Both the position numbers and the translations under genes were made by a program. From a virus (Duplodnaviria > Caudoviricetes): DNA of 64,000 nucleotides. Below are positions 10,536 to 27,032 of this stretch, piece after piece; the first letter of the stretch is position 1, and the number at the start of each line of letters is the position of its first letter. The stretch is taken from positions 1 through 64,000 of IMG/VR virus record IMGVR_UViG_3300028048_000089. The stretch is one strand, 5' to 3'. The notes beneath the pieces are model-generated. The model ran no database searches. It had not been told where the DNA came from and saw only the letters and a program-made list of their open reading frames with translations.

Positions 10536-10900
10536 CAATCTTTATTATCTTCTTCTAATTTATCAACTAAGAACTTCATTAACTTCTCATCTATGACAAA
10601 ATAGTTATGTCCGCCAGGTTCAAATGCAAATGCTATACAACCATTAAATACTCTTTGTGTAAATGCTTCATCTCTATTCTTTGCAATCCACTCTTTCTTA
10701 ATAGAGAATGATTCTTTTTCACTGGTTGGTGTTTTACATTCTATAAGCAAAGATGCCTTAGAAATTAAAACGTCAGATTTATTAAACAAACCAGCCCCAG
10801 AATTTGGCTGAACAACTCCTCCAAGCATATCTGCAATTTGTGATTCTTGTTGTGATGAATAATAACGCGTTGAATTTTCATTCTTTGTTTTTTGCTTCAT
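10532..10900 (-). CDS. PD-(D/E)xK nuclease (resolvase-like)
   Basis: QE...QPNSGA...SDV...LIECK pattern. Confidence 0.7.
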   Translation of the reverse strand: MKQKTKNENSTRYYSSQQESQIADMLGGVVQPNSGAGLFNKSDVLISKASLLIECKTPTSEKESFSIKKEWIAKNRDEAFTQRVFNGCIAFAFEPGGHNYFVIDEKLMKFLVDKLEEDNKDC

Positions 10901-11861
10901 TTTTCTTCCTCTCTAAAGTTTTTCTTAATGATTCACTTGTTTTCTTTTTACTTTCTTCAGTGTGATGACGCCCTAAAAATCTTTTTGAATGTTTTAATGC
11001 TTCACACAATTTTAAAGATTGTGAAATCTTATTTTTAGTTTCTAGAGATGCTTTTTTACCATAGTTTGGATTATTTTCACCCTTGAATGATTTTCTATTT
11101 TTTAAAGCCTTTTTATAATAATCTATGGGTCTTTTTGCACACACCATCTTATACACACATCTTTTAGAGCAATAAACACCTGAACCATATTTTTTACTTA
11201 CATAATAATCAGTCATTACTTTTCCACATATTGGACATGTATGCTTTTCTAATCTCCATTTGTAAATGAAATCTTCTTCCTCTTTAGTTTTCACGCTCTT
11301 CTTTTGATTATTAATAATAAACATTTTTTCATTTCTACTTTTAAGTGCATTATTATGTTTTAATTGTTCATCTTTTGTAAATATTTTTGCTCTTTTATGA
11401 CAACTATAATTATCATTTTTACATGACCAATGAGTTCCTCTTCTTATAAAACCAATAATTCTAGTAGATACATTAAGTAGTTCACTTATATATTTCTCAG
11501 AATAACCTAAATCTAAATAATTCTTAATCAATGAACACTTTTCAAATGAGCATTTGCAATTTCCATTTCTCTCTTCACTCAATCTAGTTGAAAAACCACC
11601 ATCACTTATATTGTATCCAATATCAATATTTTTGGCATCATAGAGTTTAATCCAGTAAATCTCCCTCTCATCCATCAACTCTTTAGTCTCAACTTCTTCC
11701 AAGAGTTCTACTTGAAAATTTTCTTTACCATATTTTTTAATTGCTCTTTTAACTAAATCGCCACTTCCCAAATACTCTCTAGTAAATTGTGAACTCTTAT
11801 GTTGACCAATATAGATTTTACCATTAACTAAATTGGTTGTTTTATAGATATATCCATACAT
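10878..11861 (-). mobile_element. Free-standing GIY-YIG homing endonuclease with NUMOD3-type repeats (HEG1)
   Basis: GYIYKTTNLVNGKIYIGQH, REIYWI, GYN; C-terminal GENNPNYGKK and HTEESKKK. Confidence 0.9.
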
Positions 11862-13557: not shown

Positions 13558-13940
13558 TATTCTACCTCACAATACACATGTATATTATTATCTTCATATT
13601 CATCATACAAATAATTCCAATGTTCTCTTTCAAGTTCCTTTACAACATCAGAAGCATATTTATCTTTTAAAAATGTTCTTAATGATAAATCTTGTAACAT
13701 CCCATATTCATCAATCTCATCTTTAAGCCATGAATCTTCAATGTCCTTAACAAATTCTCTAGCACCATCTTCTAAATACCAACTAAGAGGATTGTAATCT
13801 TTTTCATACTTTTCTTTAAATAAATATTCAATTATATCTTGAAGTGAGATATCTACATAATAAGTATAATCAAATGAATCATCTTCAAGTGGATATTCAG
13901 TACATGAAATAGAAGCACAATAAGTTAAACTAGTTCTCAT
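13557..13940 (-). CDS. Acidic hypothetical protein
   Basis: Start moved to ATG 13940 behind an AAGGAG RBS. Confidence 0.6.
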   Translation of the reverse strand: MRTSLTYCASISCTEYPLEDDSFDYTYYVDISLQDIIEYLFKEKYEKDYNPLSWYLEDGAREFVKDIEDSWLKDEIDEYGMLQDLSLRTFLKDKYASDVVKELEREHWNYLYDEYEDNNIHVYCEVE

Positions 13941-14817
13941 TAATTGTCTCCTTAGAACCATACAAGTTCAATTGCATTTCAGTTTGTCTGCTTGTAATTA
14001 ATTTTCTATATTTATTCATAGTTGTCTTTGATACCTCCCAACCGTTATTAATATAATTTTCAACATCTTCAAATTTAACATATTTAACAACAGACTCTTT
14101 AAAAACTCTAAACCTATTTTTTGTATTACTGTCATATTTCTTATTTCTTTTTGTTATATTTGGATTACCTTTAACCCAACCATCATTAAGATAATTTTGT
14201 AAATCAACTAAATTAACTGCCTTAATTTGATTTTTCTTATGAATATATACTTTACCCTTATTCTTCTTCCCTGATTTTCTTAGACTCCCAATTTTCCAAC
14301 CTTGTTTTAAATATTCATCAAGTTCCTCTCTAAATATATACTTAAATACTTTTCCATTATTTACAGTTATTTTATTTGCAATTGATTTATTGCTTTTACC
14401 AAGATGACTTTCAGACATTCTTTTTCTGACTTTTTCTTTATATTCATTATCTTGCCACTTCTTCTTGCTTATTATAGATAATTTTTCTATTGTTTCTTTT
14501 GAATGATGCTCAATTGGACAACCATCACCACCTGTAGTTAAATTATAACCAAATTCTTTTTTATTAGATTTATAATGTCTAATCCAGTACTTTTCTCTAT
14601 TATTTAATCTTTCTTTAGTATCGCACTCTTCTATCAACTCAACTTTGAAATTATCAATACCGTACTTATTCATTGCAAGATGTAAATACAACTTATCATC
14701 TTTAACTTTTGCGTGATGTTTATGTTCACTAAACCTTTTAGTAATTGACTTCTTTGTTTGACCAATATATACTTTATTCGTCAATATATTTGTTATTTTA
14801 TAAATGTTACCATACAT
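13930..14817 (-). mobile_element. Free-standing GIY-YIG homing endonuclease (HEG2)
   Basis: GNIYKITNILTNKVYIGQT, RFSEH, REKYWI, GYNLTTGG; three YLxxGW repeats. Confidence 0.9.
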
Positions 14818-14874
14818 ATGCTAAATCTCCTTATTCAATAAATTTAGCAACCATTCATCATGTCTTGAGCAAAA

Positions 14875-15426
14875 TTACAAAATACTTGATGTACTACTCA
14901 TTTTCATTTCTTCAGTTTTTGTAGATATTAATCTTCTAAGACAGTCACACATATCTTGAGCAGAGGCTACTTTATTTTTAACTGTTCTATAAGCACTATC
15001 ATAAATTGTTGCAACAACAGATTCATATTGTGCAGAAATGTTTGCTTGTGCTTGAACTTCAGCAACAGTAACTTTACTCTTACCTGCAGCATCTTTCAAA
15101 GCACTTTGATTAATAACACTTTTTGAATAAACTTCTTTTGATGCACTACTACTCATATCAGCATAAACACCTAATTGTTCAACTTTTTCTTGCATAAAAT
15201 AAACCATATTAGTTAATTCTAAGTAGTATCTTTCTAGTGTAGAAATAGTAACATCACTATCTCTAATGCATTCAACATACAAATCACTCATAAGATTATC
15301 AAGACCTTCAGAATACTTTTTAACAACTGCAGCACATGTATCATTAAAATATTGAACATTTGCTTCTGTATCATTCATTATCTTGTTAACTTTATCCACA
15401 TCTACATTATTTAAATATGTTTCCAT
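14875..15426 (-). CDS. Helical protein, possibly a UvsY-like recombination mediator; probable target gene of HEG2
   Basis: 183 aa, predicted all-alpha, between recU and recA; function uncertain. Confidence 0.35.
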   Translation of the reverse strand: METYLNNVDVDKVNKIMNDTEANVQYFNDTCAAVVKKYSEGLDNLMSDLYVECIRDSDVTISTLERYYLELTNMVYFMQEKVEQLGVYADMSSSASKEVYSKSVINQSALKDAAGKSKVTVAEVQAQANISAQYESVVATIYDSAYRTVKNKVASAQDMCDCLRRLISTKTEEMKMSSTSSIL

Positions 15427-21323: not shown

Positions 21324-22442
21324 TTATCTAATTTGTTTTTGAGAGAGAACATTTTTAACATTGCCGAAAGAGATAACAACAGCTTGATTATCACCAAAAC
21401 TTAAATTAAAGACTTGTGAATCAAGTGTAGAAAGCATACTCTTAACAACCTCTAAATCTAAATTTGCAACATATGGTGTTTCAACATTACCAGATGTATA
21501 TGCAACAACCTCATTATTTGTTCTTCTATGGTCATAAATAGTGACACAAGTCTCAGAGAATTCAAAGATACCGATGCCTCTATTTAAAGTATTTGTTGTA
21601 TCAAACAATAATAATCTATCAATTGCATCTAAAACATCTTTTTTATCAAAAGTAACTGTATTGTCAAAAACTTTATTTGCTCTACCTCTAATAGCTGCAA
21701 CAGGGAAAGAGTTAACTAAAGATTGGTCATTTGTTAAAATAGATGTAATTTCAACATTGTCTTGAGCAAACATAACTCTTGTTTGTGCAATACCGCTAAC
21801 ATCTTCAAAACCGAATGTAACATTAACATCACTATCTTTAAATAATTTAAAGAGTTTAACTAATTTTGGAGTTAACATAACTTTGATTGTTGTTGGTAAT
21901 GCAAATGAGTTAACACATGCACTAGAATTTGTGAATGTTAAACAACCTTCTTGGTCTAAGTAATAGAGTTTTTGAACTTGTTTTGTAGCATTAACATTAA
22001 TTTCTCTACTATTGTTATTTAAGATTGTCATTAATGTTGCACCTGGAACAACAAAACTAGATGTTGGATTACTAACTTTAATTTTTGGTAACACAACCAT
22101 TGAATCAACATCAAACTTTAATGGGAACTTATATGTACCATTTGCTTTAACAACAAGAGCAGAATCATTAGTTGTAAGTTCAACTGTCTTTGTAGTAATC
22201 TTACTAATTAATGCTAAAAATAATTTTGCATCAACAACAGCATGAATTGAATCTTCATTATCTAAAGGTAAAGACACTTTCACATAGTATTCACCATTAG
22301 TAACATTTAAATCTAAAACTTTGCCATCAGCAACTAATTCAACGGTGTCATTAAATGCAACATTCTTTAATGCAGAGTCAGTATCAACAGCACCGACAAT
22401 GCTCTTGCAAACTTCTTGGAATTTTTCCGCTTGTAAAATCAT
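21324..22442 (-). CDS. dnaN: DNA sliding clamp (beta subunit)
   Basis: 372 aa, three-domain beta-clamp pattern; clamp loader genes present in the window. Confidence 0.8.
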   Translation of the reverse strand: MILQAEKFQEVCKSIVGAVDTDSALKNVAFNDTVELVADGKVLDLNVTNGEYYVKVSLPLDNEDSIHAVVDAKLFLALISKITTKTVELTTNDSALVVKANGTYKFPLKFDVDSMVVLPKIKVSNPTSSFVVPGATLMTILNNNSREINVNATKQVQKLYYLDQEGCLTFTNSSACVNSFALPTTIKVMLTPKLVKLFKLFKDSDVNVTFGFEDVSGIAQTRVMFAQDNVEITSILTNDQSLVNSFPVAAIRGRANKVFDNTVTFDKKDVLDAIDRLLLFDTTNTLNRGIGIFEFSETCVTIYDHRRTNNEVVAYTSGNVETPYVANLDLEVVKSMLSTLDSQVFNLSFGDNQAVVISFGNVKNVLSQKQIR

Positions 22443-22481
22443 TTTTTTAACTTCCTTTCAATCATTATATTATACAACTTA

Positions 22482-23586
22482 TTATTCAACTAATTTTCTA
22501 ATAAATTGTTCAGTAGATTCAGTATGTTCACTAATAAGTTTAGCGATTGCTTCTTCTTTTGTCAAGTTATTTTTATTCATATATGAGTCTAATTCTTTAA
22601 GTAACTCTGCTTGATATTCATCTTCATACCAGTGAGATACATTATAAGCATCACAACTCATTGGAACATTCATATAAGGTTTTGCAGTATCTACCATAAC
22701 TTGAGTTAATCTCTTAGCAACTTGTTCAGAGTTTTCTTCAGGACATTCACCTAAAACTTCATCATGAATTGTAATTAATAATTTAAAACCTAATCTATTA
22801 AGTTCTTCATCATTATCAATGTTAATCATTGCTAACTTAGTTAAAGTGGCTGCACCGCCTTGAATAATAGCATTAACACTTTGTCTTTCTGCTTGTGCAA
22901 TAAATGAAGAATTATTTTTAATGACAATATCATCTTTCAATGCTTTTGAGATGATTTCATCTCTTTGTTTTCCCCACTTTGCTTTTGCTAATTGTTTCTT
23001 ATAATCTTGAATCTTTAATTCTAATAACTCATCACTTCTATCTTCACAATCAATAAAAGGATTAAAGTTTTTTATAGAGTTATTATCTGTAAGAGATGTA
23101 AACTCATATTCAGGTAATAAGATGTCAGGCAATCTCCTTCTTCTACCATACCAATCTTCTACATACCCACATTGTTTAACACTCTTATGAGTGTCATTAA
23201 TCCATTTTTCCACCTTTGGGAAGGCTTTAAAGAATTTATTAATGATTTCTTGGGCATCTTCTCTAGATTTGCCTAATTGTTCACCAATAGAGTTGGCCCC
23301 TCTACCATATTCAAGGCCTAATAAAATTGTCTTTGCTTGACTTCTTCTTTCTTTACCATCAACTTGTTTCTCATGAGTGATAGGATTAAACTCTAAACAC
23401 TTCTCATAAGGGACACCAAAGGATAAAGATGCAATAACAGCATACAAGTCTTTACCTTCTTTATATGCATCAAGCATACTCTTGTCTTGAGACATGAAAG
23501 CAGTTAACCTAGGTTCTTGGGCCGACTTACGAATAGTCACTACCAACTATTCTATATTGTTTTCTAGTTTGTATTGACTTTTTCAT
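22482..23586 (-). CDS. polA: Family-A DNA polymerase, C-terminal part; 19-codon ORF 23586-23527 plus 23522-22482, needing a 7-nt bypass
   Basis: GAGGAGGTG RBS, MKKSIQTRKQYRIVGSDYS-stop, then AQEPR in the +1 frame; motif B RSQAKTILLGLEYG, motif C TIHDE. Confidence 0.85.
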
Positions 23587-23603
23587 AGCACCACCTCCTC
23601 TCT

Positions 23604-24563
23604 TTATATTTTATACCACTTTATATTTTCTATTATTTTAGTACAATTATCTTCTTTAGAATGTTTTTTAACTGATGAGCAGCTAGGGAGATATGTAATA
23701 GCCTTTCCTTGAATTGATGCTTTTATCTTTCTTTGTAAAGTTGTTTCAGCATATTTATCCCCAAATGGTTTATAATTATTATACCACCAAATAGTTGCAT
23801 CTCTAATTGTTTTAAAATCTTTTCTTATTTTATTATCAATAATACAATAACAACCCACACCTCGTGAATTAAATCTATTCATTTGTGGCTCATTTGTTGT
23901 CATCATTTCTTGTCCACATCTTTGAGCATAACTTCTCTTCTCGTATTTTAACCACCCATTGTTTAAATATTCTTGCAGTTTTTCAGGTCTAACTCTTATT
24001 GTCTTACTACCCTTATAAATATACACGAGTGTTTTTTGGTTTTCGGATATCTTTTTTCTTATTTCACTAGAAAATAATTCTCCTCTTTCTCTCTTTTTCT
24101 TCATTGTAAGCGATATTTTGTTTCTCACATACTCACTTCTCATAGAGTTTTTATGTCTTTCTCTATACACATCATTATACATAGGATTATGAAGACTGCA
24201 CTTCTTTCTACATTCCTCATACTCTGATTGTAAAACATCTAAATCACTATAAGTAAAATGTTTATTCATATAAGATAGAGCAATAAAATTGTTATAAAAG
24301 AAAGTTTCAGTTGATGAACATAATGCTAACAATAAATGAGCAATAAAATGGTCCTTATATTGTAAATTTATATAATTCTCCTTTGAATTATCAACATCTA
24401 AATTATTTTCTCTATAATAAAATCTTGGAATAATGTGATGTTTTTGAGTTTTAAATTTTTCTCTTTTAGTTTCTCTGTTTGATTCAATAAGTTCTACATA
24501 CTTATCTAAATACTCATTGTCAATACAAAGACCAATATCTAGTAATTTTTCTTTAAGTGTCAT
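23604..24563 (-). mobile_element. Free-standing HNH homing endonuclease (Mob-like; HEG3) between the polA halves
   Basis: HHIIPR...N...DHFIAH; NUMOD3-like SEYVRNKIS and SSEIRKKIS; ATG at 24563 behind AAGGAG. Confidence 0.85.
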
Positions 24564-24615
24564 ATAAATCTCCTTATACTTCACTTAATTTAGCAAGTGA
24601 TTTTTCGGCTCAAGA

Positions 24616-26184
24616 TTAAATATAAATAAATATCTTTGAATTTTCAACAATTAAAGACTTGACAACATCATAAGAGTTTTCTGAATTGAGTAATTTATCT
24701 CCAACTTTTAAATCTTTGGCTTTAACCCATAAATCATTAAACAAATTAACTTCATCATAATAATCTACAACATAACAGTTGTCATCACATTCTATAGTAT
24801 TATACCTTGTACTTGCTTTAAACAATAATCTTATGTCTTTAGCATGAGAAGGGATTTGTTGTAAGTTTGGGTCTTGACTACTAAATCTACCTGTATCAGT
24901 GCCACATTGATTAAAACTACAATGTATTCTATTATCATAATTAACTTCTTGAGAAAGACTATCAACGAAGTCTCTAACTAACTTCAATAATTTCTTTCTC
25001 TCATTAATTAATTTACAAATCTTAAAAGGCATTTGGTCAATAATCTTTTCACCGGTACCTCTAGGAGATTTCTTATCAATTGCAGGAGATTTTAAAACAT
25101 CATACAATAAAATTGCTAATTGTGTTGGAGATTCTAAGTTAATTGGCCATTCAAGTTGCTCATTTTTTGATTTTTGCAACTTACCTGATTTCATTACTTT
25201 ATTATTTGCATCTTGAGATAATCTCCAAGTATCAACTTGAGGTTTTAATTGTTCAAGTTCTTCATCTATAAGTACTTGATATTCATCAACTTTTTTGTGA
25301 TACTTTTCACTTAATCTCTTTGCATAATCTTGGTCAATTTCAATACCTCTAAGTTCCATGTCTTTAACAACTTTGACTAAAGGCATTTCAATATCTCTAA
25401 ACAATCTATACAATTTACTATTTTCAGGTTTGTTAAATTGACCTACTTGATACTCATATAATTTATAAGTCATCATTGGGTCCGTAGCAGAATATAAAGC
25501 AAACACATGAGGAGGAACTTGTTCATAGTCAACACTACCAAATAAATGCTCAATGTCATATTTATCATGGTCAGGGTCAACATGTAATTTATATTGAACT
25601 TTCAATTTTGACTCTTCATTTTCATCTAATATTCTAGCTGCAATTTGAGTATCCCAATAAATAGGCAATTCAATACCACAAGTACATTGAAGAACTCTAA
25701 CATCAAATGATGCATTATGATAAATACACTTAGTATTTGCATCTTTAATTCTTTGCAATTCTTCTTTAATGTCTTTAGTTGTCAATTGATTACTAAGAAG
25801 ATTACCATCAAGGTCAACATGACTAATAGGAATATAAATTTGTTTCTCATTCTTAGTATATAAACATGGACCAACTAATTTACATGTTAAAGGGTCAAGA
25901 CTCTTATTGGTTTCAGTATCAATAGAAATAAAACCATTTTCAATTGCTTTATTAATGAATCTATGTAATTCTTCTTTTGAATAAAGAGTTACAGTATCTT
26001 CAGCATGCTTACCTAAAATTCTATAGACTTCTTCTTCAATTGCTTTCAGCCTATCACAAAGAGGAAGTTTTGAAGAACTTTTTTTGCTCTTCTTAACTTC
26101 CTTTGGATTATTAATATTGTCAAGTATCTTTTGGGTAGAATCTTCTATTTCAAATTCTTCTCCCCATAAACCTTCACTAATCAT
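24616..26184 (-). CDS. polA: Family-A DNA polymerase, N-terminal part (3'-5' exonuclease and thumb) with a Hint-like tail
   Basis: IDTET, HNASFD, YSATD, TGRFSSQDPNLQQIP, IRLLF; ends before motif A. Confidence 0.9.
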   Translation of the reverse strand: MISEGLWGEEFEIEDSTQKILDNINNPKEVKKSKKSSSKLPLCDRLKAIEEEVYRILGKHAEDTVTLYSKEELHRFINKAIENGFISIDTETNKSLDPLTCKLVGPCLYTKNEKQIYIPISHVDLDGNLLSNQLTTKDIKEELQRIKDANTKCIYHNASFDVRVLQCTCGIELPIYWDTQIAARILDENEESKLKVQYKLHVDPDHDKYDIEHLFGSVDYEQVPPHVFALYSATDPMMTYKLYEYQVGQFNKPENSKLYRLFRDIEMPLVKVVKDMELRGIEIDQDYAKRLSEKYHKKVDEYQVLIDEELEQLKPQVDTWRLSQDANNKVMKSGKLQKSKNEQLEWPINLESPTQLAILLYDVLKSPAIDKKSPRGTGEKIIDQMPFKICKLINERKKLLKLVRDFVDSLSQEVNYDNRIHCSFNQCGTDTGRFSSQDPNLQQIPSHAKDIRLLFKASTRYNTIECDDNCYVVDYYDEVNLFNDLWVKAKDLKVGDKLLNSENSYDVVKSLIVENSKIFIYI

Positions 26185-27032
26185 TATTCAATGTCGTATG
26201 TTCTTCTTGGTCTTGTAAATGTAAAGCCATCAGAAGGTTGTTGAGGTTGTTGTGGTTGTTGCACTGGTGTTGATGGCATATCATCATACTTTGGTGCAGG
26301 AGTTGGAGATAAGGCTTGTTCAACTTGTCTTTCTTCTTCAACAGAATTGAACACAGGTGCACCACCAACTTTAATACCATTATCTAATGTAGTTAAATTA
26401 TCATTGTTTTGAGATTTTTTTGGCATTGGGAAATCACCAGATTGTAAAAATTCTTCAATGTCTTCTTTACTTCTTTCCATATAGGAATGATGTGCTAAAT
26501 CAAAATCTTCAAAAGCACTGAAATCTTTAACATAACCATTTGCTTCTGTATATTTCATAGGATTTGCATATTGAATATCATAACTTGTATCAATACCACT
26601 ACCAATTCTTGTAATAGTAAATAAATTATTACATAAGTCACCATATTCATTAAATCTTGCAGATAAAATATCAGCATATTTCTTTTGGAAATTAGCAACT
26701 TCAGGAGAAACTTTAACAACTTTACCAGTTTCATCTTGAATATAATGTAAAAGTTTAACAAAGAATCTTGCTTTAATTGGTGTACCATTTGCACATAAAG
26801 GACATGCATCCATTGGGTCTTTAGCACTTCTTAAACAAACAACACTTCTAGTTCTATCTTTAATCTTAACTTCATGAATTGTTGTAATTTCAAAATCTTT
26901 TGGTGTTGCAAACATAAATCTAACAATTGCTTTTTCACCTGGTTTTAATTTAAAATAACCAACTTTTCTTTCTTTCTTTTGGTTAGATGTACTCTTCATA
27001 TCAGAGTATGTTTCATACGAATATTTTGGCAT
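26184..27032 (-). CDS. gp32-like single-stranded DNA-binding protein
   Basis: YFKLKPGEKAIVRF, His/Cys zinc site (CPLC), ITRIGSGIDTSY, disordered tail. Confidence 0.75.
   Translation of the reverse strand: MPKYSYETYSDMKSTSNQKKERKVGYFKLKPGEKAIVRFMFATPKDFEITTIHEVKIKDRTRSVVCLRSAKDPMDACPLCANGTPIKARFFVKLLHYIQDETGKVVKVSPEVANFQKKYADILSARFNEYGDLCNNLFTITRIGSGIDTSYDIQYANPMKYTEANGYVKDFSAFEDFDLAHHSYMERSKEDIEEFLQSGDFPMPKKSQNNDNLTTLDNGIKVGGAPVFNSVEEERQVEQALSPTPAPKYDDMPSTPVQQPQQPQQPSDGFTFTRPRRTYDIE

Follow-up and report, generated by a model that had tools for sequence, protein, structure and literature searches.

The 20-nt element that precedes the gene for a free-standing HNH homing endonuclease in the phage DNA analysed here (a stretch of 64,000 nucleotides, called the window) is an inverted copy of the motif-A sequence of the phage's own polymerase gene, polA, in the uninterrupted form that the resident gene lacks. 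This element (element A) is probably a homing-site mimic or operator, that is, a DNA site bound by the DNA-binding domain of the endonuclease in the manner of I-TevI, and we hold this reading with modest confidence. According to the model, the element would copy the recognition sequence of the endonuclease, namely the uninterrupted polA motif-A DNA of cassette-less phages, and the resident motif A, split by a 7-nt insert, would no longer be a good site. The intact 20-bp copy directly precedes the promoter-like box from which the endonuclease gene would be transcribed, and the endonuclease, bound to this copy through its C-terminal DNA-binding region, would occupy positions -16 to -35 of its own promoter and limit its own transcription.

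The split polA gene and its endonuclease

The minus strand is the coding strand of all genes at the polA/HNH locus (Table 1). The upstream half, polA-N, ends with a C-terminal extension of ~60 aa that has a weak Hint-like match (PT-HINT), and its stop is the TAA at 24618-24616. The downstream half begins with a short leader ORF whose last residues are ...GSDYS, with the take-off codon TCG followed by the stop TAA (23529-23527). One base after this TAA the sequence reads TCG GCC CAA GAA (SAQE...) and runs on as polA-C. When the 7 nt TAAGTCG are taken out, the canonical motif A, DYSAQE, is restored. The polA gene of an uninterrupted relative (L008, 77% identical) lacks the extension, the endonuclease and the insert, and reads ..GGDFSAQEPRL. 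The layout of the polA-C start is kept in relatives, where the inserts are 6-8 nt (longer in some loci) and their first codon is a stop. At one related locus (L022:3137-3200) the resident site has a 6-nt insert, the in-frame TGACTG, that lies after QQ rather than after S.

Table 1. Features of the polA/HNH locus, with positions in the window
Feature	Coordinates	Strand	Description
polA-N	24616..26184	-	3'-5' exonuclease and N-terminal part of family A polymerase domain
Element A	24596..24615	-	Transcript strand TCTTGAGCCGAAAAATCACT; inverted uninterrupted polA motif A; proposed endonuclease binding site
Promoter-like box TGCTAAATTAAGTG	24582..24595	-	Extended -10-like TGnTAAATT, directly adjoining element A
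HNH homing endonuclease	23604..24563	-	Free-standing, 319 aa; GGAG ribosome-binding site, ATG 24563
polA-C start	23527..23586	-	Strong ribosome-binding site, ATG 23586, 19 codons MKKSIQTRKQYRIVGSDYS
Resident motif-A site (S)	23515..23541	-	AGTGACTATTCG (12-nt left half), insert TAAGTCG (23529..23523), right half GCCCAAGA
polA-C past insert	22482..23522	-	AQEPRL... to stop; rest of family A polymerase domain, PF00476 E 6e-51

The N-terminal part of the HNH protein is Mob-like, and residues ~126-319 form a shared C-terminal region that presumably binds DNA. In tblastn searches, the only relatives of the protein in cultured phages were 'homing endonuclease' (Mob-type) genes of T4-like phages. Its C-terminal region proved to be common to GIY-YIG endonucleases (E 1e-29 and 2e-19). 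An AF2 model of the protein (pLDDT 79) was compared with the PDB by Foldseek; the best hit was I-HmuI, with a non-significant E value of 0.5 that is therefore not usable as evidence.

The locus has the architecture of a mobile bypass cassette of the MobA/gene-60 type, with a Mob-like HNH gene splitting a host gene and, early in the downstream half, an insert whose first codon is a stop and which interrupts the predicted recognition sequence. The T4 gene 39/mobA/gene 60 cassette involves a 50-nt translational bypass, and its insert gives protection from MobA (bioRxiv 10.1101/2022.08.31.505936; Bonocora et al. 2011 cited there). As in T4, a Mob-type HNH gene divides a replication gene that is essential, both halves carry terminal extensions, the stop-initiated insert early in the second half would disrupt the recognition site of the endonuclease, and some relatives have lost or replaced the endonuclease and kept the insert. 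Unlike in T4, the host gene is polA (at motif A) and not a topoisomerase gene, and the insert is 6-8 nt rather than 50. The T4 cassette paper (bioRxiv 10.1101/2022.08.31.505936) makes no mention of a target mimic beside the mobA promoter.

The locus also resembles the fractured genes and split inteins of Dassa et al. 2009, where, in the available text (PMC2677866), the break in a replication gene falls in a conserved motif and an endonuclease gene lies between the halves; the weakly Hint-like end of polA-N adds to the likeness. However, splicing residues were not found here, and polA-C has only ~10 extra residues. The available text of that paper describes no operator-like mimic. A role for element A as the internal guide (P1/P10) of a group I intron was considered and rejected, since Rfam detected no group I intron and no known RNA in window 22000-27000, and both polA halves have start and stop signals of their own.

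Element A and the promoter-like box

The sequence-only reading had placed at 24596-24615 an inverted copy of motif A that lacks the 7-nt insert and fills the gap between the polA-N stop and a promoter motif. Position and sequence (plus strand AGTGATTTTTCGGCTCAAGA) are correct, and the relationship is borne out: element A is identical at 17/20 positions to the resident motif A minus its insert, and it occupies the whole gap from the stop to the promoter-like box. It is the sole match with three or fewer mismatches to the insert-less 20-mer on either strand of the 64-kb window, while the same search on 100 shuffles gave 0 matches (0 expected by chance). The insert divides exactly the sequence that the element mimics. 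This targeted search was used in place of a gapped local alignment of the intergenic element against the surrounding +/-3 kb, in which the penalty on the 7-nt gap leaves the match without significance (P 0.49). Generic statistics from the single genome, this alignment and the duplex energy given below, are unimpressive, and the case therefore rests on relatives.

Element A adjoins a conserved and recurring extended -10-like box located 18 nt upstream of the ribosome-binding site of the endonuclease. With up to two mismatches allowed, the box has nine matches in the window (1.8 expected). Seven of the nine belong to the coding strand, where they lie either 10-35 nt ahead of a ribosome-binding site or before a non-coding RNA locus, and two of these coding-strand copies precede GIY-YIG endonuclease genes; in relatives the box is kept upstream of the endonuclease. 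A sigma-70 scan gave nothing specific, and it is the recurrence and position of the box that suggest a phage promoter. The sequences upstream of the other six boxes in the window are unrelated and contain nothing like element A, and on these grounds the element was rejected as a -35 or UP part of the promoter. No terminator was found between polA-N and the HNH gene, so that read-through RNA containing element A is probable.

Several minor features of the boxes and leaders were observed. Free-standing endonuclease genes number at least four in this genome, two of the GIY-YIG and two of the HNH type, and each follows the same TGCTAAATT box (gene positions: window 10878-11861 and 13930-14817; G000:C1:109378-109788). 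In the leader of the HNH gene (window 24540-24590, minus strand), a hairpin is predicted between UUAAGUG of the box and CACUUAA of HNH codons 2-4, with a z-score of only -1.1; it encloses the ribosome-binding site and AUG and could act as a translational block on read-through RNA. A second hairpin, formed by the 3' end of element A (TCACT) with AGTGA in the box, is present here and was set aside, as it is not kept in relatives.

The element in related loci and other polA cassettes

A nucleotide search of GenBank phages returned only two distant records, and relatives were taken from protein-based searches. These yielded full-length HNH orthologues at 43-70% identity, and those whose position could be assigned are all located between polA-N and polA-C. 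Far from being absent from related HEG-containing loci, the element (17-20 nt) precedes the same box in each of the 12 related loci with an orthologous HNH gene; it adjoins the box directly in 10 of them, and its orientation is fixed in all loci. The spacer from the box to the ribosome-binding site varies freely among these loci. The polA-N reading frame runs through the element in some loci and ends ahead of it in others, so the constraint on the element is not coding. The consensus of the reverse-complemented elements (ACTGACTTTTCAGCACAAGA) agrees with the consensus of insert-less motif A (AGTGACTTTTCGGCACAAGA) at 18/20 positions, and in all loci the similarity to the target ends sharply after CAAGA, which is followed by T in the element and by ACC in the target. 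In one locus (L022:2059-2158) the mimic is tandemly duplicated, with the two copies 22 nt apart, an arrangement typical of protein-binding sites.

The variability of the element also resembles that of the presumed target. Position by position, the non-coding element varies in parallel with 43 distinct uninterrupted motif-A coding sites (Spearman 0.69, P 0.0008), and its variability is highest at what would be codon third positions (0.84 vs 0.49 bits, permutation P 0.09). Such a pattern would be expected of a site whose binding protein has become adapted to those positions of a coding target that are conserved.

These data bear on the simplest alternative, namely that element A has no function and is left over from a past rearrangement, for instance from the capture of a piece of the target in inverted orientation as the cassette arose, or that it is an ordinary upstream part of the promoter that resembles motif A by chance. 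The generic statistics from this genome alone are weak enough to allow such a reading, and the first bases of the element (TCTTGA / TTG) could pass as a poor -35 element. However, the element is conserved down to 33-45% endonuclease identity where the adjacent spacer is not, its consensus agrees with motif A at 18 of 20 positions, its variability follows the codon periodicity of the target, and the six other boxes lack any similar upstream sequence. The conservation largely refutes a relic or chance origin, to which we give only a very slight chance.

A survey of 80 further polA loci, ~53 of them uninterrupted, indicates which component of the cassette the element accompanies. Several uninterrupted polA alleles carry sites that match the reverse complement of element A at 16-17/20 positions and are therefore plausible naive targets. 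Among the interrupted loci of the survey, the element occurs only with endonucleases that share the C-terminal region (residues ~126-319) of the window HNH protein, and these are GIY-YIG enzymes that have no other part in common with it. Loci L086-89 have a split polA, an 8-nt insert, a GIY-YIG endonuclease and the element. In the IMG/VR contigs L109-111 a 1.09-kb insertion interrupts polA motif A between DFS and QQEPR (locus coordinates ~1500-2600), with a GIY-YIG gene inside whose C-terminal region matches that of the window HNH protein. This insertion is probably a group I intron: the U at the exon end faces a G in a P1 helix that the exon forms with GCUGAAGU, 13 nt further downstream, a GUUG could serve for P10, the intron ends in G, and the exons join to DFSQQE. 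Rfam detected nothing in L109, L086 or L090, so the assignment for L109 comes from this manual reading of P1/P10 and the splice sites. The bypass site is absent from L109-111, yet their endonuclease gene is preceded by a box-like CACTAAATTATATG and, 10 nt upstream of this, by an A-like element, TTTTGTTGAGAAAAGTCA. The sequence that pairs with the exon ends in L109 is a different one, the guide GTTGGCTGAAGT beside the 5' splice site, and the A-like element is ~110 nt further on.

Conversely, the element is absent from endonuclease-less split loci with bypass-type inserts (L067, L101, L107, L113, L114 and L116), and from split/bypass loci with a LAGLIDADG enzyme (L001, L070, L102 and L106). Compared with L021, whose type of locus it shares, L113 (2440-2600) has a single clean deletion that starts at the first base of the element, takes in the box and almost the whole HNH gene, and ends at the last codons of that gene; L113 keeps the split polA and an unchanged 7-nt insert, TAAGTCA. 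The bypass insert therefore outlives the endonuclease. The overall pattern of occurrence argues that the element travels with the C-terminal region of the endonuclease and not with the recoding site, though this co-occurrence could partly reflect linkage inside one inherited cassette.

Some of the surveyed loci have peculiarities of their own. The polA gene of L001 (MT839691.1), which has a LAGLIDADG gene between its halves and whose motif A carries the in-frame 6-nt insert TAGTTG, is also interrupted between NPNL and QNIP by a group I intron without an ORF (positions 1060-1293; Rfam 76.5 bits). In L012 (5090-6230) and L019 (5130-6250), a second HNH gene, preceded by the same promoter box, is inserted about ten codons into a sliding-clamp-like gene, leaving a stranded start (MILQVEKFQDKK*) and supplying a diverged replacement start.

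RNA pairing or a DNA site

The sequence-only reading had offered a second model, in which element A is antisense to the bypass site and modulates recoding. On read-through transcripts of polA-N, HNH and polA-C, the element would pair with the take-off/landing region 1.06 kb downstream, bulging out the insert, and would modulate the hop, polA-C translation or mRNA processing. The complementarity itself is real. In a MAFFT alignment of the entire segment from element A to S, 82.8% of the cells pair, compared to ~43% when the two are slid against each other, so the register is real as well. Within the 3.9-kb transcript S is the best duplex partner of the element (-16.9 vs -11.3 kcal/mol for the next best), and the gap in pairing coincides exactly with the insert. 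In L011 all 20 of 20 positions would pair, two of them as G·U, to give a perfect RNA helix of 20 bp, and in L010 18/20 would do so. Read-through RNA is likely, as described above, and double changes are seen at three of 17 pairs.

The comparative data nevertheless do not behave as one would expect for a conserved RNA helix, which should show covariation and tolerance of G·U pairs and be present wherever the recoding site is. The covariation score among the relatives, a test proposed with the model, is 0.055, no higher than in slid controls (0.009-0.080). The 220 A/S cells comprise 169 Watson-Crick pairs, 8 G·U, 12 C·A and 31 other combinations; C·A is thus commoner than G·U and there is no wobble preference, and transitions disrupt a pair at least as often as they preserve one. 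The advantage of cognate over non-cognate A/S pairs is only 0.5 pair (16.15 vs 15.64 of 20; P ~0.02, a value without phylogenetic correction), although this and the perfect helix of L011 leave some small probability for an RNA effect. For most elements the family consensus is at least as good a match as their own partner, and 8 of 13 are closer to consensus S than to their own S. The elements of L019 and L024 are identical despite different S sites, and in L016, L020, L021 and L022 pairing falls to 12-15/20 with the element still at the family consensus. In the window genome, the duplex energy is only ~1.5 sd better than that of shuffled queries (-14.1 +/- 1.8 kcal/mol).

The distribution of the element points the same way: bypass-type inserts occur without it in at least ten loci, including the clean deletion in L113, and it occurs in intron-type loci that have no bypass. 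In addition, translating ribosomes would unwind the helix. The antisense model is thus disfavoured, and we regard it as decidedly unlikely. Very improbable, too, is the version in which the element works as RNA besides or instead of as DNA, splinting the two halves of motif A and looping out the stop-containing insert as a cis-antisense guide for bypass. Were such a splint to exist, hop frequency would be tuned or processing triggered, coupling polymerase output to endonuclease transcription.

A putative operator and its precedents

The reading of element A as a homing-site mimic has a close precedent in the td intron of phage T4. In the available text of the review PMC2988022 (reporting Edgell et al. 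2004), the operator of I-TevI is 15/20 identical to the homing site and overlaps a late promoter; I-TevI binds it as tightly as the homing site and cuts it ~100-fold less. The putative operators of I-TevII and I-TevIII are further close parallels. Both I-TevI and the window endonuclease have a ~20-bp lookalike of the homing site at the promoter of the endonuclease gene, a putative one in the window, with 15/20 identity there and, against a homing site predicted from the comparison, 17/20 here (18/20 for the consensus). In both, the resident target is disrupted and the mimic alone is intact. Loci L109-111 reproduce the T4 td layout exactly, with a GIY-YIG gene in a probable group I intron and the mimic just upstream of a promoter-like box.

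The window endonuclease differs from I-TevI in that it is a free-standing HNH enzyme that splits the host gene and is not intron-borne, and its resident target is broken by a 7-nt coding insert and not by an intron. The mimic here is inverted, adjoins the promoter element instead of overlapping it, and is known from sequence alone. For I-TevI, no conservation over ~15 diverged elements or across a swap of nuclease domains has been described, as is seen here.

Several observations thus strengthen the proposal, made in the sequence-only reading, that element A is an operator for autorepression: its conservation, its fixed position at the box, its co-occurrence with the C-terminal domain in HNH and GIY-YIG enzymes and in split and intron loci, its joint loss with the endonuclease, and its naive-target-like variability. 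The operator role itself is predicted from these patterns. The accompanying claim that the element marks motif A as the likely target of the endonuclease holds up as well, with a mimic that is conserved and tracks the family consensus of intact motif A at 18/20, the homing site being the one predicted from it. Since the sole intact copy of the site is non-coding, there is independent support for the view that the 7-nt insert in the active-site sequence protects against the phage's own endonuclease; that the insert splits the recognition sequence and confers immunity is what we infer from the mimic. Since the mimic survives swaps of the nuclease domain, specificity probably resides in the C-terminal region. 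Some reason is needed why an intact recognition site that the phage itself carries should escape cleavage, which the abrupt end of the similarity after CAAGA might provide, and the operator model presumes that the endonuclease would bind and repress at element A without cutting it.

The same distribution and conservation would be seen if the endonuclease bound element A for a purpose other than repression, such as activating the promoter, tethering the protein or serving as a decoy so that it stays away from other DNA, or being nicked so as to promote local recombination and the spread of the cassette. A role with a direction is suggested by the orientation, which is the same in all loci, and the tandem copies in L022 would also suit such binding. 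However, the position of the element, over -16 to -35 of a promoter-like box without a -35 element, is the classic one for a repressor, no feature specifically indicates nicking or activation, and repression is the only experimentally studied precedent in the available text of PMC2988022. We therefore consider non-repressive binding unlikely.

If element A is indeed an operator, the self-repression principle of I-TevI would extend beyond T4 intron enzymes to a family of free-standing HNH and GIY-YIG endonucleases in uncultured gut and rumen phages. It would also provide a way of finding the target of an endonuclease by sequence only, as a gene fragment copied beside the endonuclease promoter. 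For the paralogous HNH gene of the same genome (L007), a search of 3.4 kb gave background matches only and no detectable mimic. A possible second target mimic lies before the second GIY-YIG gene (HEG2; window 14850-14962), where the 24 nt between the upstream stop and the box include a 12/13 direct match, not significant by itself, to the upstream gene ~90 nt away. Finally, in two other cassettes at the same polA site (L108:1274-1432 and L091:632-784), the place of the mimic before the endonuclease or a large ORF is taken by a small ribbon-helix-helix (CopG-like) ORF, with a Pfam match above the cut-off for L108, and this ORF may encode a dedicated repressor that replaces self-repression.
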